From Peptococcaceae bacterium UBA5356 (GTDB lineage Bacteria; Bacillota; Peptococcia; DRI-13; DTU073), in contig DHPU01000008.1 of the NCBI GenBank assembly GCA_002407935.1, positions 9,430-73,429 of the forward strand: a stretch of 64,000 nt of DNA. Reading direction: 5' to 3'. A program made the translations under genes and the position numbers. A model generated the notes under the pieces. The model was given only the letters and a program-made list of their open reading frames with translations. It was not told the origin of the DNA and did not search any database. Shown piece by piece: positions 34,554-57,457 of the stretch (its first letter is position 1; each line of letters begins with the position of its first letter).

Positions 34554-35024
34554 TTGGAAGATTTAATTGGGATTATTATCTTTATTCTTTTTGTGGTGGC
34601 ACGTGCTAATGCAGATCGTAAACGGGGCATGGAAAAGCAACCTTCTCCCAGTAGCACCGAACAGCCAAGACCATATTTTGATTTCCCCTATACTCAGGAA
34701 GAGGAGGAAGAACCTGAGTACTGGGAAAGTTACGAGACCATGAAGAGTAACGGTACCATGGAAAATTACGAGACCTTGGAAAACATTGAGAACGTAGCAG
34801 AACAAGAAACCATGGAAACCTATGAAAGCCTGGAAAACTATGAAAGCATGGAGGGAAGAAGCCTGGAGGAACAACCGCTTCTTCATTTAGTTACAAAGGA
34901 AGAACCGGTAGTAGTCTCGTCCCCAATTAAGCAGTTTGGTTTTGCGGGAATGAATATGCAGCAGGCGGTTATTTGGAGCGAAATATTGCAAAAGCCGAGA
35001 GCTTTGCGTAAAAGAATAAGGTAG
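34554..35024 (+). CDS. Hypothetical membrane-anchored acidic repeat protein (yqfB position)
   Basis: N-terminal TM helix, an E/Y/N-rich degenerate repeat (ENYETLE, ETMETYESLENYESME) and a basic C-terminus. TTG start. No family recognised. Confidence 0.45.
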   Translation: MEDLIGIIIFILFVVARANADRKRGMEKQPSPSSTEQPRPYFDFPYTQEEEEEPEYWESYETMKSNGTMENYETLENIENVAEQETMETYESLENYESMEGRSLEEQPLLHLVTKEEPVVVSSPIKQFGFAGMNMQQAVIWSEILQKPRALRKRIR

Positions 35025-39682: not shown

Positions 39683-39733
39683 CTTAATGGAAAAGAACGA
39701 TTTTGGAGCAATATTGTGTTGAGGAGGAGAAAA

Positions 39734-42700: not shown

Positions 42701-45700
42701 GCTAAAGCTAGTATGCCGACAGCCAGGGGTTTTAGCGGTGTGGCCGCGGTAAATGGGAAGATTTATGTTGTTGGCGGCTATACCGGTAGTACCTACTTAA
42801 ATACGCTTGAAATGTACGATTCTGTAACGAATACCTGGACTACTAAGGCTAGTATGCCAACGGCCAGAGGATATTTAGCGGTTAGCGTGGTTAATGGTAA
42901 AATCTATGCGGTAGGCGGTTATAATGGTAGTGCTTATCTTAATACAGTAGAAGAATACGATCTTGCTACCGATACATGGGTTGTAAAAACAAACATGCCT
43001 ACAGGCAGACGAAACCTGGGAGCAGCCGCAGCCAATGGTAAGCTGTATGCGGTTGGTGGCTATAACGGTAGTTATCTAAATACAGTAGAAGAATATGATC
43101 CTACAGACAACGTCTGGCGAAGCAAAATAGGCATGTCTGCGGGAAAGGAAAAGCTAGGGATAGTATCTTTATTTGGCAAGGTTTATGCCATTGGCGGCTA
43201 TAACGGGACGGAATATCTGAATTCATTGGAGGAATACGATCCCCTGACCAACAATTGGATAAGCAAAAATAAGGAAAATATGATTCAGCCCCGAGGCTCA
43301 TTTGGTGTTGCCAGCTACAATGGAAATATTTATGTTCTCGGTGGTTCAGGTAACAACGGATATGGGGCACAGCTTAATACAGTGGAAGAATATAATCTCA
43401 CGGCGGATATTGCTAACTTTAAGGCTAGTATGCCAACCGGAAGGTGGGATGTTGGGGCGATTGCCGTCAATGGAAAAATTTACGCCATTGGAGGAACGAA
43501 CGGAAATACATATTTAAACAATGTAGAAGAATACGATCCGGCAACGGATACGTGGACAAGTAAGGCTAACATGCCAACAGCCAGAAGATCCTTTGGGATT
43601 ACTCAGGTAAACGGAAAAATTTATATAATTGGTGGAGCAACTGGCGGGACGACATTTATTACTACCGTGGAAGAATATGATCCGGTAACGAATAGCTGGA
43701 GTACGAAAGCTAGTATGCCAACGGCTAGATATCTATTGTCAGCAGCAACTGTAAATGGAAAAATATATGCCATTGGCGGCAGTAACGGATCTTCTATATT
43801 TAAAACCGTGGAAGAATATAATCCCATAACCAATACTTGGTCTACTAAAACTAGTATGTCTATTGCGAGAATGGGATTAAGCACAGTAGCGGCTAATGGA
43901 AAAATATATGCCATTGGTGGCTGGTATAATGCCCCGTTAAATGCGGTGGAAGAATATAATCCGGTAACAAACAGCTGGAGTACAAAAGCCTGTCTGCCAA
44001 CAGCCAGACAGGAGTTGGGAGCAATAACGGCTAACGGAAAGATTTATGCAGTAGGCGGGGACAGTCATGGAAGCCTAGATATAGTAGAAGAGTACGATCT
44101 AACTACAAATACTTGGGCAAAGGAACACAGTCTGCTTATGGAGAGAACAAGATTTGGCCTTGCAGATTGCAGTGGAAAAATTTATGTGCTTGGTGGTCTT
44201 TCGGATAATGCAACAGCAAGTAATCTGGTAGAGGAATATAATCTTGGCGCGACAGCTTGGAACACTAAAGCAAATATGGGTACAGCACGCAAAGATTTTG
44301 GGATAGTTGCAGCAAACGGTAAAATCTATGCGGTCGGAGGCAACAACGGCGGTACTTGCCTTAATACAGTAGAAGAATACAATAGTATTACAAACACTTG
44401 GGCAGCGAAGGCTAACTTGCTTACGGCTAGGGAGGGGTTAGGGGCAGCTGCGGTAAACGGGAAGCTTTATGCTATTGGCGGCTATAATGGCAGCAGTTAT
44501 TTGAATACCATAGAAGAGTATGATCTGTCTACCAATACTTGGAGTGCTAAAGCCAATATGCCTACAGCGAGAAGATATTTAGGTATAGCTGCGGTGAACG
44601 GGAAAATATATGCCATTGGGGGGTATAACGGCAGTTATTTGAATAAGGTAGAGGAATACGATCCGTTAACAAATAGCTGGACAACGAAAGCCAGTATGCC
44701 GACTGCTAGGTCTATGCTGACCTTAGTTGTAGCATATGGCAAGCTCTATGCTATTGGGGGGTATAACGGCGGTTATTTGAATAAAGTGGAAGAATACGAT
44801 CCGGCAACCAACATTTGGAGTGTCAAAGCGAATATGCCTTCCATAAGAGCCGGAGCCGGTGCGGCGGTTGTTAATCATAAAATTTATGTAATGGGTGGTA
44901 CGAACGGCACGAATAATTATCTGGATTTTAATGAAGAGTTTGACCCCATTAATAATCTTTGGGCGCAAAAAAGTACGCTGCCCACCACCAGAGGGAATTT
45001 GGGGGTAGGTTCGGTCAATGGAAAAATATATGCTATTGGGGGAATAAGATATGAAACAAGTAATATTCTACTGAAGACCGTTGAAGAATATGATCCTACC
45101 TATGACAGCGTTTCTATAGAAAGCGATAAAGCTTCTTCTAGAAAAGGGCTTGGTGTTGTGGCAACAGATTCTAAACTCTTAGCCATTGGCGGTTACAACG
45201 AGAACGGTTATCTTAACGGAGTGGATATATATCGAGAAGGTCGATTATGGTGTACAACTCAGATGACTTTAAGCAGAAAAGACTTAGGGACAGCTTATGT
45301 CAACGGTAAGGTTTATGTAATCGGTGGATATGATGGAACTAACTATTTGAATGCAGTAGAAATTTTCCAAACTAATAACTACTATAACGGTACTTGGACA
45401 ACCGGAGCTAGTATGCAAACGGCTAGAGCGGGCCTAGGCGTAGTAGCTGTAAACGGTAGATTATACGCGATTGGCGGGCAAAACAGCAACGGGTATCTAA
45501 ATACGGTTGAAGAATATGATCCTTATACGGATACTTGGCGTATGAGGGCTTCAATGGCAACACCAAGAAGTGAGTTCGGGATTGCTGTTCATAATGGATT
45601 GATTTATGTCATTGGCGGACGAAATGAAGATATTCTTTCATCTGTTGAAGTATATGATCCTATTTCTAATAAGTGGGCGGTGGCGACAAATTTACCGAAA

Positions 45701-48700
45701 GGTAGATATGGTCTTTCGGCAGCAGAGTTAAACGGTAGAATATATGCGATTGGCGGCCATGATGGAAATAACTATCTAAACATCGTAGAAGAATATGACC
45801 CTGACACCCAAAAATGGGTTCCCAAACAAGGAACGATTGATCCGCGGGCTTTTTTTGGTGCTGCCTCCTTTGCCGGAAATATTTATTTAATTGGCGGTTG
45901 TAATGAAAAAGAATATTTACGAACCATTGAGCAGTATAATGTTGGAGATATTATCTGGGAGTCAAGAGCACCGTTATTGTCTCCAAGAGCTTCATTAGGC
46001 GTGGCTGCGGTGAACGGTAGAATTTATGTCATCGGAGGGAAAAATGACTATAATTATCAATTTAATGAGGTTGAAGAATATAATCCCGCTACCAATGTCT
46101 GGATTGATAAAGCTATTATGCCAACTGCCAGAGCGGGGCTGGGCGTAGCGGAAGTAAATGGGAAGATTTACGCAATCGGCGGATATGCAGGAACTACACA
46201 ATTAAATAAAGTAGAAATGTATGATCCGGCAACCAACACTTGGAGCACAAAGGCAAATATGCCTACTGCCCGGAGTAAAATAGGCGTTGCCGCAGTCAAC
46301 GGCAAGATTTATGCTATCGGCGGATATAACGGAAGCGCGGAAATAGGAATAGTAGAGGTATATGATCCGGCAACTAACAGTTGGAATACCAGAGCAAGCA
46401 TGCCTACGGCCAGAAGTGCCTTTGGCATAACAGCTTTAAATGGAAAAATCTATATAGCCGGTGGACGTTTGAGGGGTTCTCTTGATACAGTGGAGGAATA
46501 TGATCCGGTAACCGACAACTGGAGCACTAAGGCCAGCTTAACAAGCTGGAAGTCCGGATTAAGTATCGCGGCATTAAACGGTAAAATTTACGCATTGGGG
46601 GGAGACCAACTAAATGTTGTAGAACAATATGATCCCGCTACGGATCATTGGACCACTAATACCAGTATGCCGATGGCGAAAAGCGATTTTGGTTTAGTAG
46701 CGTTGAATAATTATTTGTTTGTCATAGGTGGTATTGCTAAATCTACCTGCACTGACAGTGTCGAAGTCGGCAAATTTGGCGACGAAGCAACAAGCCCAGT
46801 TTTTGAATTAGTTCACTTGGGAGAAGAAAACGTCAATCCTTCAGGGAATTTCTCCCGCTCCTATACTGATATGGAAATTCCGGCGCCAGGATTTGATATT
46901 GACATAACCCGCACATATAATTCCCGGGATTACAGAAACGATAGTCCGTTGGGCCTTGGTTGGAGTTTTGGTTTCCAAGGCAGCCTCAAAGATAGTGATG
47001 ATAACCAATGGATGGCTAGAATGCCTAATGGGAGCGCCATGACCTTCACCAAAAATGCGGATAGTTCGTACACAGCCAATGATTTAAGGGCAACGCTTGT
47101 GAAACAGGCGGATAATACCCATATCCTTACTACCCAAGATCAATACACTTATGGGTTTGATACTAACGGTTGGCTGAAGTGGATGAAGGATAGAAACGGA
47201 AACATTATTAACCTCATGGTGAACGCCGCGAACGGGAAAGTGACCGCGATCACCGACCAGGTGGGACGGCAAATAAACCTTACATACAATGCTCAGGGGT
47301 ACATCCAAACCATTACCGACCCGTTGAATCGTACTGTGTACTACGAGTATACCAATAACCAGCTTACCAAGGTCACCGATCCCCGTGGCAAGAACATGTA
47401 TTACAGCTATAATTCCCTTGGGTATTTGGAAACAATCAAAGACCATGATAACAATATACTTGAGTCTGTTGTTTATGATGCTATATCAGGTACTTTGCCT
47501 AAAGTTGCCCGGGTAACGGATATTTACGGGAACACTCAGACCTATATGTATGATACTGAATACCGGAAAGTTACCGTTACCGATCTAAATGGGCGGGAAA
47601 CAATCACCTGGTTTGACAATTCCCTTTATCCGATCCAAGTGCAAGATGCTGATGGGCGAAGAAGTACCACTATTTATACCCTTGACGAAAATGGCGGCAA
47701 TAAATACGGAGAAGTAGAATCAATTACCGATCGAAATGGGAACAGAACCGTATATGAAAGAGACAGCAGAGGGAACATTACCCATATCTATCATCCTGAT
47801 TCCAGCTGTCAGGAATTTGGCTACGATGATAAGAACAATAAAATCCGGGAAAAAGACCAGGACGGCAAATATACCTTCTATATTTACGATGGTACTAAAG
47901 CCAGACTACTCAAGAAAGCCCAACCCCTGAATGGCACAGACCAATATACAGCTGGTTGTAACGAAACGCCGTTTGCCGTAACCACCTATACCTATTATAC
48001 TGATGCCGAAGCACAACAAATGGGTTGTCAAGCGAAAGGGCTGCTTAAATCCGAGACTAACCCTAACGGAAAGCTTACAACCTATACCTACGATACTTAT
48101 GGCAATATCCGCACTGTTACCAATCCCGAAGGGAAAACAATCACTTACCAATACAACAACATCGGTTGGAAAACGGCGGAGATTTCCCCGAAACAAAATA
48201 CGACCAGCATCAATTACGACCAAAACGGGAATATCGAAGAAGTTACCTTAGCCGGGGGCGAAGTAACCCGTACGACCTATGACACGATGGGACGAGTCAC
48301 CAAAGAAGTAGCGGCAAACCTTTATGATCCCGCCTTAGATAATCTTGCCGGACATACCTATAATGGCAACCATGGTACGCGGTACACCTATTACCCCAGC
48401 GGCAAAATACGCACCGTGACCGATCCGGAAAACAACGTGACCAGCTATACTTATGATCTCTACGGGAATATCGCGACAGAAACCAAACCGAACGGAGCTA
48501 TCTATGAATATGGTTATGATGCTTTGGATCGTCTGACCTCAACCCAATTCAAAGAAAATACCGGAGCAGCTCTCGTGGTCTTAAACACCTATAGCTACCA
48601 GATCCTGCCTGACGGCAAAACGACCAAAACAGAGACCCGCTATCTCAACGACAGTGAGACAGCTGAGACAATTTACACTTACGATTACGAAGATCGGCTC

Positions 48701-51700
48701 ATCAAACAAGATAATCCTGACGGCAGTTCCAGCAGTACACAATATAACCCGAACGGAACGATAAACTCCACCACCGATGAGCGGGGTAAGACCACTTATT
48801 ACCGCCATGACGGACTGAACAGGAATACGGAAAAGTGGATTCCGGCCAGTTTTGACGGAGGCGTTACCCTTTACACTTATGTAAAGAACACCTACGATAA
48901 AGTGGGTAATTTAATGACCACGCAAACCGGGAAAGAGACCGTTCCCTTGTATCAAACGGCATCCGAGCTCATTACCGTGACGAATACATACTATGACGAT
49001 AATAAATTAAAGAGCCAAGCGGATAGTGCCGGCAGAAAAACTGAGTACCAATATGACGATGACGGCTATCTTAGCCGTAAAGAGGTCTACACTGATGCAA
49101 CTGCAAAAATCACTACGGAATATCTCAACAATCATCTGGGTAAACCCGTTGAAGAAAAGCTCCATGTTCAGGAAAAAGATTTGGCGGGCGATGACCCAAC
49201 CAGCGAACAAGAAGTAATCCTCACCACCACGTATACTTACGATCAAAACGGGAACTTGAAAACCTTAACCAGACCGGACACCATCGTAATTACGTATACC
49301 TATGATCATCTCGATAGGGTTCTTAGCACCAGTATGCCGGGCGTAGACGAGCACAACAACCCCGTCCAGATCACCACTGCCACCACCTACAACTGGGATG
49401 GGCAAGTCCTCACTGAAACTGATGCCAATAATCATACCATCAGGAATACATACGATCAGCGTGGTCGGCTAATCAAAACTACTGACACCTTGGAGAAAAC
49501 GGCTGCTTACTACTATGACCGCGGCGGTCGTCTAATCGCGGAAGTATCACCCAATAACTATGATCCGGCGAAAAACCTTACCCAAATGAGCCGGACAGAA
49601 TACACTTATGATCTTATGGATCGGGTGCAAACCAAAGGCTACACCTATCTTGAGCCGATGAGCGGGCAGTGGCGGAGCTATGTCGCCCAAGCCTTCCAGT
49701 ATGACACTAAGGGCAATATTACCAAACAGCTGGATGCGTTAGGCTTTGCGGCAGGGGCTGGTACTACCGCCCAAAAAATTGCCAGCGGCTATGGTACGGT
49801 CACTACTTACGACTTAGCAGATAGAGTGCTCACAATTCTGGATCCGGTAAGTCAGGAAAAAGGGCTGCCCTTTACTGTGAAGTATCAATATGACGGGGCC
49901 GGGCGCAAAACAAGCGAAACTAACGCCAAAAATATCGGCACTGCCTACACTTACGATGAGGCCGGGAACATTCTTTCCATTACGAAGGACAATCATTTAA
50001 TCCAAACCAACACTTATGACCTCACTGGCCATCTGCTGGCTCAAACCGACGCCAACGGCAACACTACGACCTTCGAATACAATGCCTTCGGGAAAGAAAG
50101 AAAAGCAAACTACCCCGGTGATGCGACAATTCCAGTCAATAGCACTACTTCCCAATACGACCGGCTGGGAAACCTGATGCAAGAAACGAACGCTGCCGGC
50201 TTTGTTGACCTGTACACCTACGATAACCAAGGGCGGGAAACATCTCAGACGCGGCGCAAAGCCGACGGCACGCAAAGTATTACCACCAGCGTGCGTTACG
50301 ACAAAGCAGGGAACCCGCGTTTCCTCACGGACGGGAATAGCAAAACCACAGAACAAAGCTATAATGACAACAATAAGCTTATTAGCAGTAAAATAACCGT
50401 TACCGATCTAAATGGCACGGCGCGAGAGCAAAGCACCACCTATACCTATGATGCGAACGGCAATCAGCTTACCCAAACAGACTGGCTGGGTAACACCTAC
50501 ACCAATATTTATGATCCTTTAAACCGGCTGATTGAAAAGAAAGATCCGCTGCACAAAAGCATCAGCAGACTGGAATACAACGAGAACAGCGTGCAAGTAA
50601 AAGCTTACGATGCCTTGGGCAAAGCAACCCAATACACGTATGACAAAAACAACCGGCTCCTTTCGACCATTGATCCCCTAAATCACAGCAAAAGCCAGAC
50701 CTACGATGAAACCGGGAAAATAAAGACCTCTACTGATGGCCGGGGAAATACGACGATCTACAACTACGATAATTTTGACCGTCTCAGCTCCGTAGTGAAT
50801 GCGTTAAACGAAACCACTGCCTATACTTACGACTTAAACGGCAACCTGTTAACCCAGACGGATGGCGAAGGGCGGGTCACCACCTTTGAATACAACGCCG
50901 CGAACAAAAGCACCAAAAAAATAGACCATGGAGGGAGAACCGGCACCCCGGGCAACTACACCTATGACCTCGCTAAGACGGAAAGCTATACCTATGACGC
51001 CTTGGGGAACCTTGTTACCAAAACAGACCGCAATGGCAAAACCACTACCTATACCTATGATATTCATGGTAAAATATTGACAGAGAATGTGGGAATCATC
51101 TCAACTGCCTATACCTATGACGGGAACGGGAATCAGTTGACCATGACCGATCAGACCGGCACTACAACCCGGACCTATGACGAACTTAACCGCACCAAAA
51201 CGAAAACTATTCCCGGGGCAGGAACCTTAACCTTCCTTTATGACATCACCGCCGGACTTCCTGCCGGGCAGGTCGCGGAACAGCAGACTGATGCCAAAGG
51301 CAACATTACGACCCAAATCTTCGACCAAGCGGGAAGAATGTGTCAAGTCACGGCTGATGGGCAGACGACCACTTACACCTATTATGATGACGGCAAAAAG
51401 CACCAGATTATTTATCCCTTCGGTTTCAGCGAAGAATATACCTATTATGACGATGGCATGCTGCATACGCTTGTCAATAAAAAAGCGGATCAGAGCATCA
51501 TTGACAGCTATACCTATACTTACGATGAAGCGCATAACCTTGTTACGAAGCTTGATGCCAAAGGAACCACAACCTATACCTATGACTACCTCAATCGGCT
51601 GGAAACCGTCACCGAACCGAACAAAACTACCACCTATACCTATGACAGAGCAGGCAACCGCATTAATCAATTGGAAGAAGCCGAAGGCGGGCAATTGCTG

Positions 51701-53371
51701 GATACTCCGGGAGCAGCCGTCAACACCTATGACGAATTAAACCGGCTGAAAACTGTGGTCAAAGATGGCACGACGATCACCAATACATACAATGGGGAAG
51801 GCTTCCGCGTAGCCAAAGAAGTAAATGGTGTAACCACCAACTACGTCTATGTCTCAGACCAAATCGTTCTTGAACTGGATGGCTCCGGTAACCAGACCGC
51901 CCGCAATGTCCAGGGAACGAACCTGATCTCCCGGACAGTAGATGGCGTAACTCTTTACTATATGTACAATGGGCACGGAGATGTTACCGCTCTCATTGAT
52001 TCCAGCGGGAATATTCACACCACATATTACTATGATGCTTTCGGTAATTTACTGGAATCTACGGGTAATGTCAATAATCCCTTTACCTATGCCGGATACC
52101 AGTATGACCAAGAGACAGGCTACTATTACCTGCAAGCACGGCACTATGACCCCATCACGGCTCGCTTTATTTCCGAGGATACTTACCGGGGTGATCCCAC
52201 GGATCCGCTCACGCTGAATCTGTATACGTACGGGATAAATAACCCAATAAGGTATATTGATCCTACCGGGCATTACATTGATGAAAGCAAATTAAGCAAC
52301 TTATCAAATGATAAGTATTATAAAGATGTAAAACTGACCTATGTTCCGGGGAAAGGCGATACTCTAACTGTAACCACAAAAGATGGTTTGAAAATAACTA
52401 TTACGGATAACCGTTCGGGTGTATATATTGATCCGACAGACCGAGTTCATGATTTATCCAGTCATGGCAATAAGAAGAAGAGCAGTCAGGTTAAATCTAA
52501 CGCGGGGAAAAATGATACAAAAGCCAATAGTCCAAAGCAAAAAACGATTCAGCCACCCAAACAAAATGCATCACCTCAAAACATGGCACCCGTACCAGTA
52601 GTAACACCTTCGACAGCAGGTGAGTTGTCAAAAAAGTTGGGATCGGGATATGATGCAGTTGGAATGGGTGGGTTCCGAGTACAAGAAGCAGGCCGTTATA
52701 CATTTTCACTTGATAAATACAGCAATATAGATGATCTTGTTGGTAAAGTGTATTGCGCTTGGAATGACACCCATCCAGATAAAAGAGTACCTATTCTCAA
52801 ATTACAAAATAGTGGTTTTTTTGGTACTGAGTTTTATACCAGATTAAGTTACCTACAAAAGATGGGAGTAGATATTTCACAACTAGATGTTCAGGAATTA
52901 GATAGGATATACGAGGCTGAGCATTATGCTAAAGTAGATATGATTGCAGGTGGTGTTGGTATTGCAGCGGGGATTGCAGCAAATACTGCAAGGATGGCTA
53001 CAGCGGCTAAGACAGTTACTAATGTTGCAGATGATGTTGTAGAGGGCGCGGGGAAGTGGACTAACAGAATTAAGGCTACCCAAGAAGTAATTCCGGGCAC
53101 AAATATTCCCAAATCTTTTGTTATGGAAGGAAAAGTGGTCAATGGTAAGGAAATATGGGTTCATGGTAACGCAACAAAACACATGGGTGAATTTGTAAAT
53201 TCAGCAAAGGGTTCCGTTTTGGTTGAGAATGAATTGATGGCTAGCTTTCAAAATACCGTATCGGAAATATTACCTAAAGTTAAGCCTGGACGTAATTTTT
53301 TCAACTTAAACGGATGGGAAATGGGAATAAGCGGTGATACCGGCGTAATTTATCACGCACTTTTTAAGTAG
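39734..53371 (+). CDS. Giant (~4,545 aa) secreted polymorphic toxin: signal peptide, I9-like propeptide, acidic linker, subtilase (S8), 36 Kelch repeats, RHS/YD-repeat cage, C-terminal toxin region
   Basis: ATG at 39734 after GAGGAGGAG; signal peptide ...GIAIPTDLAKA. S8 motifs VAVLDTGVD / HGTHIAG / GTSMAAAFVSG. 36 units of NGKIYAIGGYNG..YLNTVEEYDP.TNTWS.KASMPTAR. RHS N-plug (ITRTYNSRD...GLGWSF) and many YD repeats. RHS core end RHYDPITARFISEDT...NLYTYGINNPIRYIDPTGH. Confidence 0.93.
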   Translation: MRKSGFKKVISLVLLLTFSLGIAIPTDLAKATESGKTQEFVQQTKPVIEPSNLTNSNEKQSKEDAAAEDVNNNASTLSQEEINKIVDDHLRSQEKVDEFSEENKSENIEITEEEKTDRFIIKYKDSKQKEETAKKLKNNKIKKRIQTKNKQYDLLITTEKINKNDCKKYFQQEKDDSNIEYIQPDYEVTVAAVDLLEKNNEQPIGGPGEAPVEQPAVEPIDESEKGTIGESVDEDPLVEEPIDEETTNEAVEDQKEDAADELTEEPVKDSNTEENEPTDDAELDDALLTEQDEITEEIIEEITPVDDPNFAEQWALQPNEYTDKKNQVSAVGIDAVNAWENAEGKGVIVAVLDTGVDITHEDLSDNIWVNAAEIPGNGLDDDENGYIDDVNGWNFVNKSNLVHDPALVHDEWHGTHIAGIIAASKGNQKGIVGVAPKAKIMPLQVFQNGTAYTSDIISAIEYAQQMGAQIVNCSWGTTSENVALQEAIAEAGLLFVCAAGNSNQDIDLDPVYPASLSNSNVIAVAAIKKNGHLATFSNYGENSVDVAAPGSEIESTLPENNYGKSAGTSMAAAFVSGEAALIISRFPEASHAEVKARIMDSSDRLSSLNGKVKRASKINCANALEEPLNDNYGILKVLEEEISAEESIGSSEGGDFSLYSVDEWNTRASMSTPRRYLGVVELNGKIYAIGGYNGAYKNTVEEYDPATNTWSTKASMSYARYGLGVAAVNGKIYAIGGYNGGYKSYVEEYNPVTNTWSTKASMPTARGYLGVTAVNGKIYAIGGYNSNGNLNTVEIYDPINNQWSTKTSMAVARYGLGVVEINSKIYAIGGYNGSYLNAVEEYDPVTNTWNMKASMPTPRRLFGVTVANGKIYAIGGRNSSYQNIVEEYNPLVDTWGKRNNLSTAREGLGAVAVNGKIYAIGGYNGSYLATNEEYGLPLSSWSQLKSMATARTGLSAAAVNGKLYAIGGYNGSTYLNTVEEYDSANNSWTAKASMPTARGFSGVAAVNGKIYVVGGYTGSTYLNTLEMYDSVTNTWTTKASMPTARGYLAVSVVNGKIYAVGGYNGSAYLNTVEEYDLATDTWVVKTNMPTGRRNLGAAAANGKLYAVGGYNGSYLNTVEEYDPTDNVWRSKIGMSAGKEKLGIVSLFGKVYAIGGYNGTEYLNSLEEYDPLTNNWISKNKENMIQPRGSFGVASYNGNIYVLGGSGNNGYGAQLNTVEEYNLTADIANFKASMPTGRWDVGAIAVNGKIYAIGGTNGNTYLNNVEEYDPATDTWTSKANMPTARRSFGITQVNGKIYIIGGATGGTTFITTVEEYDPVTNSWSTKASMPTARYLLSAATVNGKIYAIGGSNGSSIFKTVEEYNPITNTWSTKTSMSIARMGLSTVAANGKIYAIGGWYNAPLNAVEEYNPVTNSWSTKACLPTARQELGAITANGKIYAVGGDSHGSLDIVEEYDLTTNTWAKEHSLLMERTRFGLADCSGKIYVLGGLSDNATASNLVEEYNLGATAWNTKANMGTARKDFGIVAANGKIYAVGGNNGGTCLNTVEEYNSITNTWAAKANLLTAREGLGAAAVNGKLYAIGGYNGSSYLNTIEEYDLSTNTWSAKANMPTARRYLGIAAVNGKIYAIGGYNGSYLNKVEEYDPLTNSWTTKASMPTARSMLTLVVAYGKLYAIGGYNGGYLNKVEEYDPATNIWSVKANMPSIRAGAGAAVVNHKIYVMGGTNGTNNYLDFNEEFDPINNLWAQKSTLPTTRGNLGVGSVNGKIYAIGGIRYETSNILLKTVEEYDPTYDSVSIESDKASSRKGLGVVATDSKLLAIGGYNENGYLNGVDIYREGRLWCTTQMTLSRKDLGTAYVNGKVYVIGGYDGTNYLNAVEIFQTNNYYNGTWTTGASMQTARAGLGVVAVNGRLYAIGGQNSNGYLNTVEEYDPYTDTWRMRASMATPRSEFGIAVHNGLIYVIGGRNEDILSSVEVYDPISNKWAVATNLPKGRYGLSAAELNGRIYAIGGHDGNNYLNIVEEYDPDTQKWVPKQGTIDPRAFFGAASFAGNIYLIGGCNEKEYLRTIEQYNVGDIIWESRAPLLSPRASLGVAAVNGRIYVIGGKNDYNYQFNEVEEYNPATNVWIDKAIMPTARAGLGVAEVNGKIYAIGGYAGTTQLNKVEMYDPATNTWSTKANMPTARSKIGVAAVNGKIYAIGGYNGSAEIGIVEVYDPATNSWNTRASMPTARSAFGITALNGKIYIAGGRLRGSLDTVEEYDPVTDNWSTKASLTSWKSGLSIAALNGKIYALGGDQLNVVEQYDPATDHWTTNTSMPMAKSDFGLVALNNYLFVIGGIAKSTCTDSVEVGKFGDEATSPVFELVHLGEENVNPSGNFSRSYTDMEIPAPGFDIDITRTYNSRDYRNDSPLGLGWSFGFQGSLKDSDDNQWMARMPNGSAMTFTKNADSSYTANDLRATLVKQADNTHILTTQDQYTYGFDTNGWLKWMKDRNGNIINLMVNAANGKVTAITDQVGRQINLTYNAQGYIQTITDPLNRTVYYEYTNNQLTKVTDPRGKNMYYSYNSLGYLETIKDHDNNILESVVYDAISGTLPKVARVTDIYGNTQTYMYDTEYRKVTVTDLNGRETITWFDNSLYPIQVQDADGRRSTTIYTLDENGGNKYGEVESITDRNGNRTVYERDSRGNITHIYHPDSSCQEFGYDDKNNKIREKDQDGKYTFYIYDGTKARLLKKAQPLNGTDQYTAGCNETPFAVTTYTYYTDAEAQQMGCQAKGLLKSETNPNGKLTTYTYDTYGNIRTVTNPEGKTITYQYNNIGWKTAEISPKQNTTSINYDQNGNIEEVTLAGGEVTRTTYDTMGRVTKEVAANLYDPALDNLAGHTYNGNHGTRYTYYPSGKIRTVTDPENNVTSYTYDLYGNIATETKPNGAIYEYGYDALDRLTSTQFKENTGAALVVLNTYSYQILPDGKTTKTETRYLNDSETAETIYTYDYEDRLIKQDNPDGSSSSTQYNPNGTINSTTDERGKTTYYRHDGLNRNTEKWIPASFDGGVTLYTYVKNTYDKVGNLMTTQTGKETVPLYQTASELITVTNTYYDDNKLKSQADSAGRKTEYQYDDDGYLSRKEVYTDATAKITTEYLNNHLGKPVEEKLHVQEKDLAGDDPTSEQEVILTTTYTYDQNGNLKTLTRPDTIVITYTYDHLDRVLSTSMPGVDEHNNPVQITTATTYNWDGQVLTETDANNHTIRNTYDQRGRLIKTTDTLEKTAAYYYDRGGRLIAEVSPNNYDPAKNLTQMSRTEYTYDLMDRVQTKGYTYLEPMSGQWRSYVAQAFQYDTKGNITKQLDALGFAAGAGTTAQKIASGYGTVTTYDLADRVLTILDPVSQEKGLPFTVKYQYDGAGRKTSETNAKNIGTAYTYDEAGNILSITKDNHLIQTNTYDLTGHLLAQTDANGNTTTFEYNAFGKERKANYPGDATIPVNSTTSQYDRLGNLMQETNAAGFVDLYTYDNQGRETSQTRRKADGTQSITTSVRYDKAGNPRFLTDGNSKTTEQSYNDNNKLISSKITVTDLNGTAREQSTTYTYDANGNQLTQTDWLGNTYTNIYDPLNRLIEKKDPLHKSISRLEYNENSVQVKAYDALGKATQYTYDKNNRLLSTIDPLNHSKSQTYDETGKIKTSTDGRGNTTIYNYDNFDRLSSVVNALNETTAYTYDLNGNLLTQTDGEGRVTTFEYNAANKSTKKIDHGGRTGTPGNYTYDLAKTESYTYDALGNLVTKTDRNGKTTTYTYDIHGKILTENVGIISTAYTYDGNGNQLTMTDQTGTTTRTYDELNRTKTKTIPGAGTLTFLYDITAGLPAGQVAEQQTDAKGNITTQIFDQAGRMCQVTADGQTTTYTYYDDGKKHQIIYPFGFSEEYTYYDDGMLHTLVNKKADQSIIDSYTYTYDEAHNLVTKLDAKGTTTYTYDYLNRLETVTEPNKTTTYTYDRAGNRINQLEEAEGGQLLDTPGAAVNTYDELNRLKTVVKDGTTITNTYNGEGFRVAKEVNGVTTNYVYVSDQIVLELDGSGNQTARNVQGTNLISRTVDGVTLYYMYNGHGDVTALIDSSGNIHTTYYYDAFGNLLESTGNVNNPFTYAGYQYDQETGYYYLQARHYDPITARFISEDTYRGDPTDPLTLNLYTYGINNPIRYIDPTGHYIDESKLSNLSNDKYYKDVKLTYVPGKGDTLTVTTKDGLKITITDNRSGVYIDPTDRVHDLSSHGNKKKSSQVKSNAGKNDTKANSPKQKTIQPPKQNASPQNMAPVPVVTPSTAGELSKKLGSGYDAVGMGGFRVQEAGRYTFSLDKYSNIDDLVGKVYCAWNDTHPDKRVPILKLQNSGFFGTEFYTRLSYLQKMGVDISQLDVQELDRIYEAEHYAKVDMIAGGVGIAAGIAANTARMATAAKTVTNVADDVVEGAGKWTNRIKATQEVIPGTNIPKSFVMEGKVVNGKEIWVHGNATKHMGEFVNSAKGSVLVENELMASFQNTVSEILPKVKPGRNFFNLNGWEMGISGDTGVIYHALFK
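40661..41615 (+). other. Subtilase (peptidase S8) catalytic domain of the giant protein
   Basis: Asp codon at 40790-40792, His at 40970-40972 (HGTH) and Ser at 41438-41440 (GTSMA). Closely paralogous to the S8 domain of the upstream gene. Confidence 0.85.
41717..46775 (+). repeat. Array of 36 Kelch-type beta-propeller blades (coding, ~47 aa each)
   Basis: 36 occurrences of the [KR][IL]Y[AV][IV]GG core counted by hand. Every sixth unit (6, 12, 18, 24, 30, 36) has an atypical linker. Confidence 0.85.
46792..52272 (+). repeat. RHS/YD-repeat shell region ending at the RHS-core autoproteolysis motif
   Basis: Dozens of YxYDxxGNL/R-type repeats. Ends with the conserved YDPxxxRFxxxDP ... NLYxYxxNNPxxYxDPxGH motif at ~52258-52272. 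Confidence 0.9.
49988..51034 (+). repeat. Direct repeat copy A (~1,047 bp) inside the giant gene; copy B is at 54190-55236
   Basis: See the orphan fragment: near-identical DNA, same orientation, 4,202 nt apart. Confidence 0.9.
52273..53371 (+). other. Variable C-terminal region (365 aa): putative toxin cargo, unclassified
   Basis: Begins immediately after DPTGH. Contains a small beta-rich segment, a K/S/P/Q-rich linker, an unknown ~120-aa domain, a Gly/Ala-rich hydrophobic helix (MIAGGVGIAAGIAANTARMATAA) and a terminal ~105-aa domain (…WVHGNATKHM…GVIYHALFK). Lower GC than the RHS shell. Confidence 0.6.
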
Positions 53372-53383
53372 GAGGATACAAGT

Positions 53384-53905
53384 GTGCTATTAAAAAATAA
53401 AATTGAACACGGTGAAACTATTGCACAAGTTGAATTTGAAAAAGTAGCTGACGATTTACTGATGATTTCTATTGACAATGACATCAACGACTCATCTAGG
53501 GTGTTTAGCTATTGGAGATTATTAGGTACAGGTGAGAATCCACCTCTGGAAATTGGTATAAATACTAAGAAAAAGACTATAAAAAATATAACTTTTTTTG
53601 TGGATTCCGATTGTTTCAAAGACTTGACTTTTCAAGAACTAAATGTTCTTAAAGGTAGCATCATCGTTGACACGAAGATTTTTAGGAAAGAAAACGATTA
53701 TGTGGACTTAACAGGAGAATATGTTGTATCTGTATTAGATAATAGGCTCATTTGTATTTTCGACTCACATAGCCATATTAAAGAAATTATTGGGAATAAC
53801 AACATCAAGTTCTTTGTGAATAGCAATAATGAATTATACGGATTTGCTATTTATCATTTACAAGAACAAGAAATAAAAGAAATAATGTCCATAAGGAAAA
53901 TCTAA
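53384..53905 (+). CDS. Putative cognate immunity protein (family not recognised)
   Basis: 173-aa ORF 12 nt after the toxin stop. RBS AGGAGGA overlaps the toxin stop codon; GTG start. Very AT-rich, with no signal peptide or TM helix. The position is canonical for Rhs immunity genes. Confidence 0.6.
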   Translation: MLLKNKIEHGETIAQVEFEKVADDLLMISIDNDINDSSRVFSYWRLLGTGENPPLEIGINTKKKTIKNITFFVDSDCFKDLTFQELNVLKGSIIVDTKIFRKENDYVDLTGEYVVSVLDNRLICIFDSHSHIKEIIGNNNIKFFVNSNNELYGFAIYHLQEQEIKEIMSIRKI

Positions 53906-54078
53906 ATTTCTAGACCGGAAAATGAGGTTACCTGTAAATGTAAGAGGTGTACCTTTGCAGATGCCTTAAAATCTTTAACGATGGATACTTTACAGCAATC
54001 ACAGACACCTCAAAGATGTACCTCGCTCAATTAACAACCACTTGAGAAAAAGTAGAGGTTGATTCATAAAAGTCTGGT

Positions 54079-54135
54079 GCGGTCGGCATTGCCGACCGCT
54101 GTGAACTGGCGGGTGCGCCCGAAGGTGCACCCGCC
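54079..54135 (+). other. Pair of adjacent GC-rich perfect hairpins (possible terminator / junction element)
   Basis: gcggtcggc-att-gccgaccgc (54079-54099) and ggcgggtgc-N10-gcacccgcc (54108-54135), followed by ttt. GC-rich within an AT-rich spacer. Confidence 0.5.
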
Positions 54136-54183
54136 TTTAACCTGCTGCATGGTTTATCTACCACGAAGAAATGACTAATACGT

Positions 54184-55275
54184 ATGACGGATAATCAATT
54201 AATCCAAACTAACACCTATGACCTCACCGGTCATCTGCTGACTCAGACTGATGCCAACGGTAACACCACGACCTTCGAACACAATGCCTTCGGGAAAGAA
54301 AGAAAAGTAACCTACCCCGGTGATGTGACAATTCCAGTCAATAGCCGTACTTCCCAATACGACCGGATGGGAAACCTGATGCAAGAAACAAACGCTGCCG
54401 GCTTTGTTGACCTGTACACCTACGACAACCAAGGGCGGGAAACCTCTCAGACACGGCGCAAAGCCGACGGTACGCAAAGTATTACCACCAGCGTCCGTTA
54501 CGACAAAGCAGGGAACCCGCGTTTCCTCACGGACGGGAATAGCAACACCGCAGAACAAAGCTATAATGACAACAATAAGCTTATTAGCAGTAAAATAACC
54601 GTTACCGATCTAAACGGAACTGCGCGAGAGCAAAGCACCACCTATACCTATGATGCGAACGGTAATCAGCTTACCCAAACAGATTGGCTGGGTAACACCT
54701 ACACCAATATTTATGATCCTTTAAACCGGTTGATTGAAAAGAAAGATCCGCTGCACAAAAGCATCAGTAGACTGGAATACAACGAGAACAGCGTGCAAGT
54801 AAAAGCTTACGATGCCTTGGGCAAAGCAACTCAATACACGTATGACAAAAACAACCGGCTCCTTTCGACTATTGATCCCCTAAATCACAGCAAAAGCCAG
54901 ACCTACGATGAAACCGGGAAAATAAAGACCTCCGTCGATGGCCGGGGAAATACGACTATCTACAACTACGATAATTTTGACCGTCTCATCTCCGTAGTGA
55001 ATGCGTTAAACGAAACCACTGCCTACACGTACGACTTAAACGGCAACCTGCTAACCCAGACGGATGGCGAAGGGCGGGTCACCACCTTTGAATACAACGC
55101 CGCGAACAAAAGCATCAAAAAAATAGACCATGGAGGGAGAACCGGTACCCCGGGCAACTACACCTATGACCCCGCCAAGACGGAAAGCTATACTTATGAT
55201 GCCTTGGGGAACCTTGTTACCAAAACAGACCGCAATAAGTATATTCTGCTGATAGATTTTACATCCGTTTTATGA
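54184..55275 (+). pseudogene. Orphan RHS-repeat fragment: duplicate of an internal segment of the giant gene, lacking N-terminus, RHS core end and toxin
   Basis: Colinear with 49988-51034 at a constant offset of 4,202 nt and no indels; 14 aa differences in ~349 aligned residues by hand count. Homology ends at ...TKTDRN, after which the ORF reads KYILLIDFTSVL-stop. Confidence 0.85.
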
Positions 55276-55317
55276 TAAAATAAAAGCATGCAGAGAGTAG
55301 CTGGAGAGAGTAATATA

Positions 55318-55584
55318 ATGCCTTTAATTTCACAATTTTACGGGATTTTGATAAGAATGTTTTTTAATGACCAGGAGCAGCACTGTTTACCACATTTTCA
55401 TGCGGTGTATGGTGAATACTCAGGTTCTTTTACACTGGACGGTGAGCTTATAACTGGAGATATTCCCAAAAAGCAGCAGAAGCTTGTTGCTGCTTGGGCT
55501 ATCATTCATCAGGAGGAGCTTGAAGCACTTTGGAAGACCATTCAAGAGACTGGTGAATACTTTACAATAAAGGGACTGGAGTGA
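55318..55584 (+). CDS. DUF4160 domain protein
   Basis: MPLISQFYGILIRMFFNDQEQHCLPHFHAVYGE matches the DUF4160 signature (F.GI.I.MY.ND..PPHFHA.Y.E). ATG at 55318 after ggagagag. Confidence 0.8.
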   Translation: MPLISQFYGILIRMFFNDQEQHCLPHFHAVYGEYSGSFTLDGELITGDIPKKQQKLVAAWAIIHQEELEALWKTIQETGEYFTIKGLE

Positions 55585-55826
55585 TTTATATGGCGCCAAG
55601 ACCTAAGAAAGTTAAGGCTTTGGAAAACTATTGCCTGCAAGTGTTTTTTGAAAATGGTGAAACAAAGATATATGACATGTCGGCATTACTTGAAATGCCT
55701 TTTTACAGCAAGTTAAAGAACAAAAGCCTGTTTAATACTGTCAAGGTCAAGGATATAACTTTAGAATGGGCTACAGGTCAGGATATATGTCCGGACGAGC
55801 TTTATAATAACAGCAAAAGCTTTTAA
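55581..55826 (+). CDS. DUF2442 domain protein
   Basis: Overlaps the DUF4160 stop (GTGA). V.ALENYCLQVFFENGETKIYDMS...L resembles DUF2442, and DUF4160/DUF2442 pairs are a recurrent two-gene cassette. The start could be the ATG at 55590. Confidence 0.7.
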   Translation: MIYMAPRPKKVKALENYCLQVFFENGETKIYDMSALLEMPFYSKLKNKSLFNTVKVKDITLEWATGQDICPDELYNNSKSF

Positions 55827-55862
55827 AATTTAAATAGAATTAAATTGAAGTTTATTCAAAAA

Positions 55863-55896
55863 ACAGCCAACGAAAAAAATTCGTTGGCTGTTTTTT
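55863..55896 (+). terminator. Rho-independent terminator at the right edge of the accessory island
   Basis: acagccaacgaa-aaaaa-ttcgttggctgt followed by ttttt. Confidence 0.85.
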
Positions 55897-55977
55897 CGTA
55901 AGCGTTAAAGTGTTGTGGTTCTGTTTTGGGAGGAGAGGGCATAAAGATATTTAATAGGTAAATGGGGGGATGTTCTG

Positions 55978-56232
55978 GTGGAGAAATTGACTCGTTTTTT
56001 GGATCTACCGAAGGAGATTGTTTATAATTTACCTAAAGTTACCCTAATTGGTAATATGCAGGTTTTGCTGGAAAACCATCGGGGGATTATTGAATATAGT
56101 GCGGAAAAAGTACGAATCGCCATAAATTCGGGCGAGATGGAGATCACCGGTGAGGGGTTATTTATTCGGAACATTAACAGGGATGAAATCTCTCTGGATG
56201 GAGATATTTCCGCTATAAAATTTTACCGGTAG
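55978..56232 (+). CDS. yqfC: Sporulation protein YqfC
   Basis: LDLPKEIVYNLPKVTLIGNMQVLLENHRGIIEYS...V.I is typical of YqfC; GTG start; upstream of yqfD. Confidence 0.9.
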   Translation: MEKLTRFLDLPKEIVYNLPKVTLIGNMQVLLENHRGIIEYSAEKVRIAINSGEMEITGEGLFIRNINRDEISLDGDISAIKFYR

Positions 56233-56236
56233 GTGG

Positions 56237-57457
56237 TTGGAGATGAAATGGACTTCCGGGATATCCGGTTATGTAGAGATATCTTTATGGGGTATGCAGC
56301 CGGAAAGAGTAATTAATATGGCCTTGAGCAGGGGCATTTCTATTTGGGATATTCGACATCAAGAAAAAGATCATTATATACTCAAGGTAAGTTTGGGTGG
56401 ATATAAAGCTTTACGTATTTTAGTAAGGCGTTCTTCCTGTCGGGTAAAAATCATCACTAAAAAAGGGGCGCCTTTTTTAGTGATGCGGGCCAAAAGAAGA
56501 AAAGTACTAGTCATAGGTACTTTCTTTTTTTGCCTTACTTTATATTTTTTAAGTTCTTTTGTTTGGTTTATCGAGGTGACGGGGAACAAATTGGTTTCCG
56601 CAGAACTTATTTTGGAGAAGGGACAATTGCAGGGGCTGCGCAGGGGAATGCCTAAAGCGGCTTTTAATCGGAAGGAGCTTGCCGAAAGATTACTCTCGGA
56701 AATTCCTGAGCTTTCCTGGGCAGGGATTCATACACAGGGAACAAAGGTAATTATTGAGGTTGCGGAAAAAACCTTGCCTCCCGCTGATGACGAGCATCAG
56801 CCGGCGGATTTAGTAGCACGGATTGATGGAAAGATAGAAGAATTACTTGTCTTAGTGGGAACTCCACTGGTGAGAGAGGGCGATCAGGTCAAAAAGGGGC
56901 AGACTCTGATTGCCGGTTTATTGTATTCACAGATAAAAATTTCGGAAACGGGGGAAATTAGTCCGGAAGGAGAACCGGAGTTGGTTCGTGCTAAAGGTCT
57001 TATTCGGGGCAGGGTTGTACGGACACATATAGAGCAGTGCCCGATCCTGGAAGAAATTAGGGGCGATACGGGAGCCGAGACCGGTGCGGTTTTATTAAAG
57101 CTGCTGGGAAAAGAGATTTATTTACGGGGAACCGGGGAATGTGCTTATGAAAATTACCGGGTGATTCGCCAGACTAAACCACTTATTAACTTTAAGGGGA
57201 GGATTTTTCAGGGCGCTGTCGAATTAATTACTATTGTGTTTAAGGAGCAATTTTGTGAAAGACGACAATGGGGGATAGAAGGGGCATATCAGGAAGCGGG
57301 CAGGAGAGCACGGGAAATTTTAAAAAGTGCTTTACCGATTGATTGCAAAATTACCGCCCAAAAATTCGAGCCGGTACCGGTACAAGATAAAGGGATTGTG
57401 GCAGTAAAATATGAGCTGGAGACAGTTGAAGATATCGGAACTTATCGGCGAAGATAG
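56237..57457 (+). CDS. yqfD: Sporulation protein YqfD (stage IV)
   Basis: GYVEISLWGMQPERVINMALSRGISIWDI N-terminus, one central TM helix, ~400 aa, conserved pairing with yqfC. The start may be the ATG at 56243. Confidence 0.88.
   Translation: MEMKWTSGISGYVEISLWGMQPERVINMALSRGISIWDIRHQEKDHYILKVSLGGYKALRILVRRSSCRVKIITKKGAPFLVMRAKRRKVLVIGTFFFCLTLYFLSSFVWFIEVTGNKLVSAELILEKGQLQGLRRGMPKAAFNRKELAERLLSEIPELSWAGIHTQGTKVIIEVAEKTLPPADDEHQPADLVARIDGKIEELLVLVGTPLVREGDQVKKGQTLIAGLLYSQIKISETGEISPEGEPELVRAKGLIRGRVVRTHIEQCPILEEIRGDTGAETGAVLLKLLGKEIYLRGTGECAYENYRVIRQTKPLINFKGRIFQGAVELITIVFKEQFCERRQWGIEGAYQEAGRRAREILKSALPIDCKITAQKFEPVPVQDKGIVAVKYELETVEDIGTYRRR

Follow-up and report, generated by a model that had tools for sequence, protein, structure and literature searches.

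Why does a piece of an Rhs gene, about 1 kb long and without a toxin, lie downstream of an apparently complete gene of the same kind? The question is raised by a 64,000-nt stretch of contig DHPU01000008.1 of Peptococcaceae bacterium UBA5356 (the window; all coordinates are positions within it, and residue numbers refer to translation of the giant open reading frame (ORF) that opens at GTG 39716). In this window a predicted Rhs toxin gene and its candidate immunity gene are followed by a second copy of an internal segment of the YD-repeat shell, which is cut off at the edge of a DUF4160/DUF2442 gene pair. Rhs stands for 'rearrangement hot spot', and the loci are named for such repeat-mediated rearrangement. 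The fragment is probably the decayed stump of an Rhs orphan, what is left of a displaced 3' end after the loss of its tip. A first-pass annotation, made from the letters of the window, had offered two readings of the repeat, as such a stump or as a live recombination substrate, and its observations are taken up below where the results bear on them.

A direct repeat within an Rhs locus

A self-comparison of the window, shifted by 4,202 nt, placed the limits of the direct repeats at 49981-51034 and 54183-55236. The two copies are colinear, lie on the same strand and contain no indels, with 53 mismatches in 1,054 nt (95.0% identity). At the left edge, identity rises from about 25% (random) to about 95% at 49981-49988/54183-54190, and at the right edge it is back to random directly after 51034/55236. 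The repeat shares the reading frame of the giant ORF (39716-53371), where it spans residues 3423-3773, and its right edge precedes the core end of the main gene (DPTGH, residue 4182, nt 52259) by 1.2 kb. The copies differ at 16 of 351 amino acids when counted from 49982. The first-pass annotation had described 54190-55236 as colinear with 49988-51034 at this offset and without indels, about 1.2 kb upstream of the core end, and had counted 14 amino acid changes in 349 codons; the offset comparison bore out the geometry, the position of the core-end motif agreed, and the same count was obtained over the same codons. The pair is the sole long, high-identity dispersed repeat of the strain-variable island described below. 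The elements of the locus up to the break are:

39734-53371, + strand: main toxin gene, encoding a signal peptide, subtilase S8 domain, Kelch array, DUF6531, YD/RHS shell, Rhs-associated core and C-terminal toxin
49981-51034, + strand: source copy of the repeat, YD-repeat shell residues 3423-3773 of the main protein
52031-52273, + strand: Rhs-associated core domain (TIGR03696, 73.4 bits against a cutoff of 32.5), ending in YIDPTGH, with no counterpart in the orphan
52274-53371, + strand: variable C-terminal toxin region, a 365-aa tail after the core motif
53384-53905, + strand: candidate immunity gene of 173 aa with a strong ribosome-binding site, starting 13 nt past the toxin stop
53906-54182, + strand: spacer with two G+C-rich hairpins (54076-54099 and 54108-54135)
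54183-55236, + strand: orphan copy of the repeat, a pseudogene-like Rhs shell fragment (95.0% identical to the source copy, no indels; RHS_repeat match with E = 6.6e-50)
54184-55275, + strand: open frame over the orphan copy, 363 aa, with its ATG exactly at the homology edge

The orphan consists of YD repeats only, in keeping with its earlier description as a toxin-less piece of the internal Rhs core. After the residues TKTDRN, its ORF continues through 12 unrelated codons (KYILLIDFTSVL) to a stop; it has no match to TIGR03696 (NCBIfam) and is without the last 410 aa of the shell. Its ATG, four codons downstream of an in-frame TGA at 54172, has no Shine-Dalgarno sequence, unlike the neighbouring genes. 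Downstream lie the DUF4160 and DUF2442 genes and then yabP, with no toxin or immunity gene belonging to the fragment. Judged as an Rhs-orphan module, the fragment has the 5' core homology in direct orientation without the delivery part, and has neither a continuation through the core end into a toxin of its own nor its own downstream immunity gene. As the latter two are defining features of a functional orphan, it is classed as a decayed one; and since ribosome-binding site, shell end, toxin and immunity gene are all missing, it cannot act as a swap-in tip. It is best regarded as a pseudogene fragment at an Rhs locus, an ordinary scar rather than a new system, and would not surprise a specialist.

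The hairpins of the spacer are adjacent and perfect, with stems of 9-12 bp (-50.7 kcal/mol for 54060-54160, z = -5.9), and are not followed by a T-run. By blastx and blastn, no Rhs remnant was found in the spacer and no homologue of it in any fetched locus, and a six-frame comparison for Rhs remnants in the spacer and in the junction past the break gave chance-level matches only. The residues TNTYDG just upstream of the orphan ATG were considered as an Rhs remnant and rejected (E > 4). Rfam searches over 53300-56300 returned sub-threshold matches only, which were terminator-driven.

Repeats are poorly handled by short-read metagenome assemblies, and in one SPAdes contig (L032) the two copies are identical over 50349-50912, as would be expected if a single locus had been written twice. 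Other records of the locus were retrieved through exact-protein look-ups. A 72.6-kb JGI contig (3300029822) and a MEGAHIT k127 contig of SRR1562008 were identical to the window, and three further records contained the locus: a SPAdes contig (ERZ724040), Logan contigs of SRR1562008 and, from the separate assembly ERZ27283067, MEGAHIT k119 contigs. Several of these five assemblies, which stem from at least two samples, span the junction at 54183 on the left, and several span that at 55237 on the right; support for the two junctions had been named earlier as the check for an artefact, and both were found by four assemblers in the data of at least two assemblies. An assembly artefact is effectively refuted by this support and by the 53 fixed differences between the copies, the longest stretch without a mismatch being 64 nt, which is shorter than a k of 119 or 127.

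Divergence of the copies and origin of the fragment

Nucleotide alignment of the two copies with a count of synonymous and non-synonymous changes, as the first-pass annotation had suggested, gave 35 synonymous differences over 234 synonymous sites and 18 non-synonymous differences over 819 non-synonymous sites (dN = 0.022, dS = 0.167, dN/dS = 0.13, where dN and dS are non-synonymous and synonymous divergence). Neutral drift of one copy after in-situ duplication predicts a ratio of about 0.55, and the probability of so few non-synonymous changes under that model is 2e-6. The 16 amino acid differences were polarised with 13 outgroup sequences (58-75% identical), by which about 5 derived states were assigned to the orphan (among them Y33H, where Tyr is kept in 12 of the 13 outgroups) and about 5-6 to the main copy (among them T20A, where Thr is kept in 11 of the 13). 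Excess decay in the orphan was rejected, the derived changes being about evenly split. Because of the low dN/dS and this even split, the copies appear to have diverged mostly as parts of working genes, as two alleles from different lineages that later came to lie in tandem, and not by in-situ duplication and decay.

The differences are unevenly spread along the repeat. The left 85 nt (49981-50065 against 54183-54267) contain 14 mismatches, as opposed to 39 in the remaining 969 nt (16.5% versus 4.0%), with a dS of 0.69 versus 0.13 (permutation p of about 0.001). This excess suggests either a mosaic ancestry or a later homogenisation of the interior. Unequal crossing-over or slippage could have duplicated the 4,202-bp unit in tandem in situ; if most of the second unit was then deleted and the rest decayed neutrally, this would account for an offset that stays constant, for copies in direct orientation and for the lack of indels. 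Such a history is nevertheless very unlikely, being at odds with the dN/dS and with the even distribution of derived changes, and the dS of the left 85 nt is too old for an island with flanks that strains share at 99.6-100% identity. The dN/dS favours instead the earlier proposal that the fragment is the tip-less stump of an older displaced 3' end.

At the protein level, the nearest loci from public genomes and metagenomes reached only 60-72% identity, the best values being 72% among genome contigs and 70% among metagenome contigs. A protein-homologue search was saturated by YD-repeat proteins (best match 61%) and did not return the query's own locus, and neither the exact orphan sequence nor that of the giant protein was present in the protein-cluster collection. 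Among these loci, Candidatus Formimonas warabiya DCMF (L002) has two extra Rhs fragments downstream of its main gene, and a contig from a sediment metagenome (L033) has one. The three fragments all reach the core end (residues 3529-4186, 3916-4186 and 3583-4187) and align without gaps to their own main gene over 2,562, 955 and 1,967 nt, at 98.9, 97.0 and 99.0% identity, respectively; in L033, the orphan ORF of 994 aa precedes one of 127 aa. Main/orphan direct repeats of 1-2.5 kb are thus routine in this subtilase-Kelch-RHS family. The relatives' orphans begin (residues 3529, 3583 and 3916) in a shell region shared with the window fragment (residue 3423), and only the right end of the fragment is abnormal. 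The statement in the first-pass annotation that normal orphans carry the core end with a toxin and immunity gene accords with these three, all of which reach the core end; the full orphan toxin/immunity pair that it had suggested looking for at this locus in related genomes was not found among relatives, none of which exceeds 72% amino acid identity.

Synteny with the best relative, Peptococcaceae bacterium UBA5318 (L001), was not seen, its rhs gene lying at another chromosomal site adjoining ffh/rpsP/rimM. Downstream of that gene (14406-15601 of L001) there is an insertion sequence (IS)-type integrase gene (rve) and then a 106-aa ORF, which matches residues 11-58 of the window toxin tail at 65% identity and appears to be a second decayed orphan, in this case cut short by an insertion sequence.

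As the remnant of a displaced 3' end, the fragment would have formed in two steps. In the first, two alleles of one shell segment, diverged in working genes of different lineages, would have been brought into tandem when a new 3' module joined the resident gene. This module would have comprised the distal shell from about residue 3423, the shell end, the tRNase-like tip, the immunity gene and the 278-nt spacer. One side of it would have been joined by homologous recombination in the core and the other by an illegitimate join at 54182/54183, with the old 3' part moved downstream, which is the classical route of C-terminal displacement. In the second step, the old copy would have been stripped of all that lay beyond residue 3773: the final 410 aa of the shell together with its own toxin and immunity gene. 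The arrival of the DUF4160/DUF2442 cassette may have caused the loss, or the addictive nature of the cassette may have limited the deletion that was tolerated.

The same two events could have come in the reverse order. The downstream copy would then be the body of the original gene, which a deletion or the arrival of the cassette had cut at residue 3773; a complete 3' module sharing about 1 kb of shell sequence would later have integrated upstream of the homologous segment, instead of replacing it, and restored a working toxin. This order needs no more events than the first, gives the same anatomy and fits the dN/dS of 0.13 equally well. It is unlikely all the same: a dead 11-kb gene would have to stay intact until its rescue, a simple homologous replacement would leave no duplicate, and the classical orphans in the relatives show displacement of intact ends to be the common route in the family.

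Several points weigh against displacement followed by decay. The data are compatible with either order of displacement and truncation. No relative closer than 72% amino acid identity was found, so the ancestral orphan is not seen intact in any genome, and the tip that it would have lost is hypothetical. The fourfold higher divergence of the left 85 nt is not predicted by a simple model of this kind, and no direct evidence was found for recombination between the copies. The open frame of 351 codons is a further such point, though weakly informative, as the chance of no stop arising in 53 random substitutions is 0.12.

Exchange between the copies, the cassette and the island

Recombination between the copies would, as the first-pass annotation had stated, remove a 4,202-bp unit, and the geometry given for it is correct. 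RecA-type recombination across 1,054 nt of 95% identical direct repeat could convert short tracts, or could delete the unit of shell end, toxin and immunity gene to leave a truncated product of 3,785 codons (from GTG 39716). Deletants would lose immunity to the toxin of their siblings and, by analogy with the biology of Rhs and contact-dependent inhibition (CDI) systems, should be purged. The predicted deletion junction and circle were absent from all assemblies of the locus examined, and the proposal of a live recombination substrate was not substantiated.

Contig L032 differed from the window at 18 positions, all of them copy-discriminating. Gene conversion was rejected as their source, since they make up exactly three whole groups of sites separated by at least 55 nt, the pattern of bubble collapse at k = 55, and since the contigs of that assembly overlap the borders of the island by 55 nt. 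In the contigs of ERZ27283067 (L062 and L049), orphan sites 54831 and 54870, 39 nt apart, carry the bases of the main copy, C,C where the window has T,T. These contigs break exactly where the resulting 164-nt identical run forces a k = 119 graph to branch, and the strain shows only about 2 other differences from the window in about 26 kb when a contig end in tandem repeats is set aside. The search for gene-conversion tracts proposed earlier thus yielded one two-site candidate, which may be a tract of 40-164 nt and which is explained equally well by bubble removal at a lower k in an iterative assembler.

The repeat pair might also be read as bracketing a self-contained 4,202-bp unit of distal shell, shell end, tRNase tip, immunity gene and spacer, which would loop out by homologous recombination as a circle with 1 kb of conserved shell and re-enter the rhs gene of another strain by a single crossover. 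The internal shell segment would then be the 'attachment site' of a recombinase-free toxin/immunity cassette, and the two orphan sites with main-copy bases would be a trace of ongoing exchange; this is a doubtful reading, with little probability attached to it. More generally, that the fragment is functional, be it as a separate 363-aa YD-repeat protein, as a programmed recombination switch or as 'attachment' homology for a 4.2-kb circle that takes tip and immunity gene from strain to strain, is highly improbable. An open frame with its ATG exactly at the homology edge, a low dN/dS, main-copy bases at two orphan sites in other assemblies and an island that is polymorphic within one sample would all suit a functional element. 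The frame has no Shine-Dalgarno sequence, however, and two strong hairpins lie just upstream of it; one third of a beta-cocoon shell is not likely to fold when the plug that closes it is missing; a deletion or circle junction occurs in no assembly, and the two-site difference also fits bubble collapse; and the relatives have no conserved counterpart. The decayed stump is accordingly retained as the probable identity of the fragment in what follows. The features at and beyond the break are:

55237-55256, + strand: junction filler of 11-21 nt, separating cassette homology from the last base with Rhs homology (55236)
55257-55828, + strand: DhiT/DhiA-like type II toxin-antitoxin cassette, with a conserved leader of about 60 nt, a DUF4160 gene (55318-55584) and a DUF2442 gene (55590-55826)
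55863-55897, + strand: terminator-like hairpin with T-run at the right end of the island, found by reading the sequence and not listed by a simple terminator scan
35034-55903, + strand: strain-variable island of 20,870 bp between a yqfB-like ORF (34554-35024) and yabP/yqfC (55978)

The two genes of the cassette matched Pfam families PF13711 (71.6 bits) and PF10387 (55 bits), and the DUF4160 protein scored 76.8 bits against NCBIfam toxin_DhiT, below the equivalog cutoff of 100. Clusters at 90% identity contained 42 and 40 members for the two proteins, respectively, with named members of Desulfosporosinus, Desulfitobacterium, Metallumcola, Paradesulfitobacterium and Ruminiclostridium between both. 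In contigs with a near-identical DUF4160 protein, the pair stood beside nitrogenase-like, MTHFR, beta-lactamase-fold and transposase genes. Nucleotide homology to copies elsewhere (88-92%) had sharp limits at 55247-55257 and 55828-55832, covering about 580 bp, and because this identity ends sharply in unrelated genomic contexts the cassette is considered mobile. The first-pass annotation had noted that the fragment stops where the DUF4160 cassette begins, which agrees with cassette homology starting 11-21 nt after the break. The two-gene cassette contains no recombinase, and some of the copies elsewhere (the loci compared being L064-L071) adjoin transposase genes. At residue 23 of the window DUF4160 protein (55384-55386), the motif reads EQHCLPHFH, where nine other members examined have His (7) or Asn (2); this change in a His-rich motif may attenuate the DhiT-like toxin.

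The whole locus lies in an island set within the conserved dnaK ... yqfD-ybeY-era block of a spore-forming Firmicute. The island holds a subtilase-RCC1 protein, the Rhs toxin with its candidate immunity gene, the fragment, the toxin-antitoxin cassette and the terminator-like hairpin. Seven contigs from other samples (L052, L053, L054, L055, L057, L058 and L059) carry the empty site, with 35033 joined to 55904 across 115 nt of unrelated intergenic DNA that includes a hairpin, and with flanks 99.6-100% identical to the window. The island is present in some strains and absent from others that are otherwise near-identical. In ERZ724040, the island contig extends past both borders by exactly 55 nt, and 55904 is the first position of the flanking contig; the contig names give coverages of 16.1 (island) and 18.9 (flank). 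Island and empty alleles coexist in this sample, as overlaps of 55 nt are the signature of a branch in a k = 55 graph. No flanking direct repeats and no recombinase gene were seen, and the island ends had no homologue in any fetched locus.

Adjacent to each other in the island, at 35219-39682 and 39734-47200, are two giant, predicted secreted proteins, each beginning with a subtilase S8 domain and then a beta-propeller array. The first has RCC1 repeats and fn3, with thirteen 150-nt tandem units at 36.9-39.1 kb that are about 80-87% identical; in the second, a Kelch array is fused to the Rhs toxin. The subtilase-propeller-Rhs architecture also occurs in relatives L001, L003, L004, L011 and L012.

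The main toxin gene probably starts at ATG 39734, which is preceded by GAGGAGG, within the ORF that opens at GTG 39716; the public gene call has 4,545 aa. Its product, which is taken here to be a Sec-exported toxin of the WapA-like Gram-positive type, has an N-terminus that reads by eye as a typical signal sequence, followed by subtilase S8, 31 Kelch_1 motif matches, DUF6531 and a YD/RHS repeat array with PF05593 and TIGR01643 matches across the region, and its shell is colinear with that of the relatives over residues 2650-4186 (tblastn). The toxin tail matched no Pfam family. Its last 140 aa or so (nt ~52940-53365) matched the CdiA-CT(EC869) tRNA nuclease (PDB 7vmc_B, E = 7.9e-15), an E. coli toxin dependent on EF-Tu/Ts, the structure of which has been described (PMC9071432). 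About 120 aa directly after DPTGH are common to the tips of L033 and L034 and to the small fragment in L001, and may form a conserved pre-toxin segment. The candidate immunity gene lies in the kilobase of lowest GC content in the window (35%) and had no Pfam, NCBIfam or PDB match and no homologue in any fetched locus. Because shell, core domain and toxin tip are all present, the main gene is predicted to be a complete polymorphic Rhs toxin gene. GC content is 47-49%, with a negative GC skew, in the Rhs shell (47000-52000) and in the fragment (54000-55000), falls to 35-41% in the toxin tip and immunity gene, and is about 42% in the rest of the window, where the skew is strongly positive (+0.2 to +0.4); such changes are the compositional patchwork usual for Rhs loci.

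Comparison with known systems

For the Rhs elements of enterobacteria, Jackson et al. (BMC Genomics, 2009) reportedly described C-terminal displacement with vestigial tips. The finding leaves the current understanding of Rhs systems unchanged. What it adds is C-terminal displacement with orphan decay documented in a Gram-positive, Sec-exported subtilase-Kelch-RHS family, the rules having come from enterobacteria, together with a concrete route by which an orphan may die, namely truncation at the edge of a mobile toxin-antitoxin cassette. Two results go beyond the first-pass annotation: the strain-variable 20.9-kb island with its empty-site alleles, and the recognition of the DUF4160/DUF2442 pair as a mobile, DhiTA-like toxin-antitoxin cassette. 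The locus is a natural test bed, with island-bearing and island-free strains of near-identical flanks in the same community samples, and read-level data from it could measure the rate at which a 1-kb, 95% identical repeat recombines in the wild and the purging of toxin and immunity loss.

Within the family, the orphans of Formimonas (L002) and of the sediment contig (L033) are the nearest parallels. They show 62-63% amino acid identity over the shell region compared, and form direct repeats of 955-2,562 nt at 97-99% identity that start in the same part of the shell; unlike the window fragment, they extend to the core end and then into a tip of their own. As at enterobacterial Rhs displacements and the orphan cdiA-CT/cdiI modules (Poole et al. 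2011, PMC3150448), successive new 3' ends would have left older remnants downstream that share the core and have no initiation signals. Those remnants normally retain the junction motif (DPxGL or VENN) and the tip, whereas the window fragment is internal shell only. The cassette at the break resembles DhiTA of Dickeya dadantii 3937 (DUF4160 and DUF2442), an active type II toxin-antitoxin system (PMC8198452), in having the DUF4160 toxin gene first and the DUF2442 antitoxin gene adjacent or overlapping; it differs in scoring below the equivalog cutoff and in its Firmicute host, and its activity is a predicted one.

The closest model for the locus as a whole is the rhs-main/rhs-CT-orphan locus of Salmonella Typhimurium LT2 (Koskiniemi et al. 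2014, PMC3967940). Both have a full-length rhs gene with an immunity gene (a candidate one in the window), followed by a repeat of part of the core in direct orientation, and in both recombination over the shared homology would remove the main tip and its immunity gene. In Salmonella, such recombination has been shown experimentally and switches toxins (PMC3967940), since the orphan there includes the core end and, beyond it, a second toxin that is active and an immunity gene. The window fragment, by contrast, has no tip and falls 410 aa short of the end of the core. Recombination could therefore only destroy the gene, and the toxin upstream of the fragment belongs to a Gram-positive spore-former and carries a Sec-type signal, rather than being delivered by a type VI secretion system.

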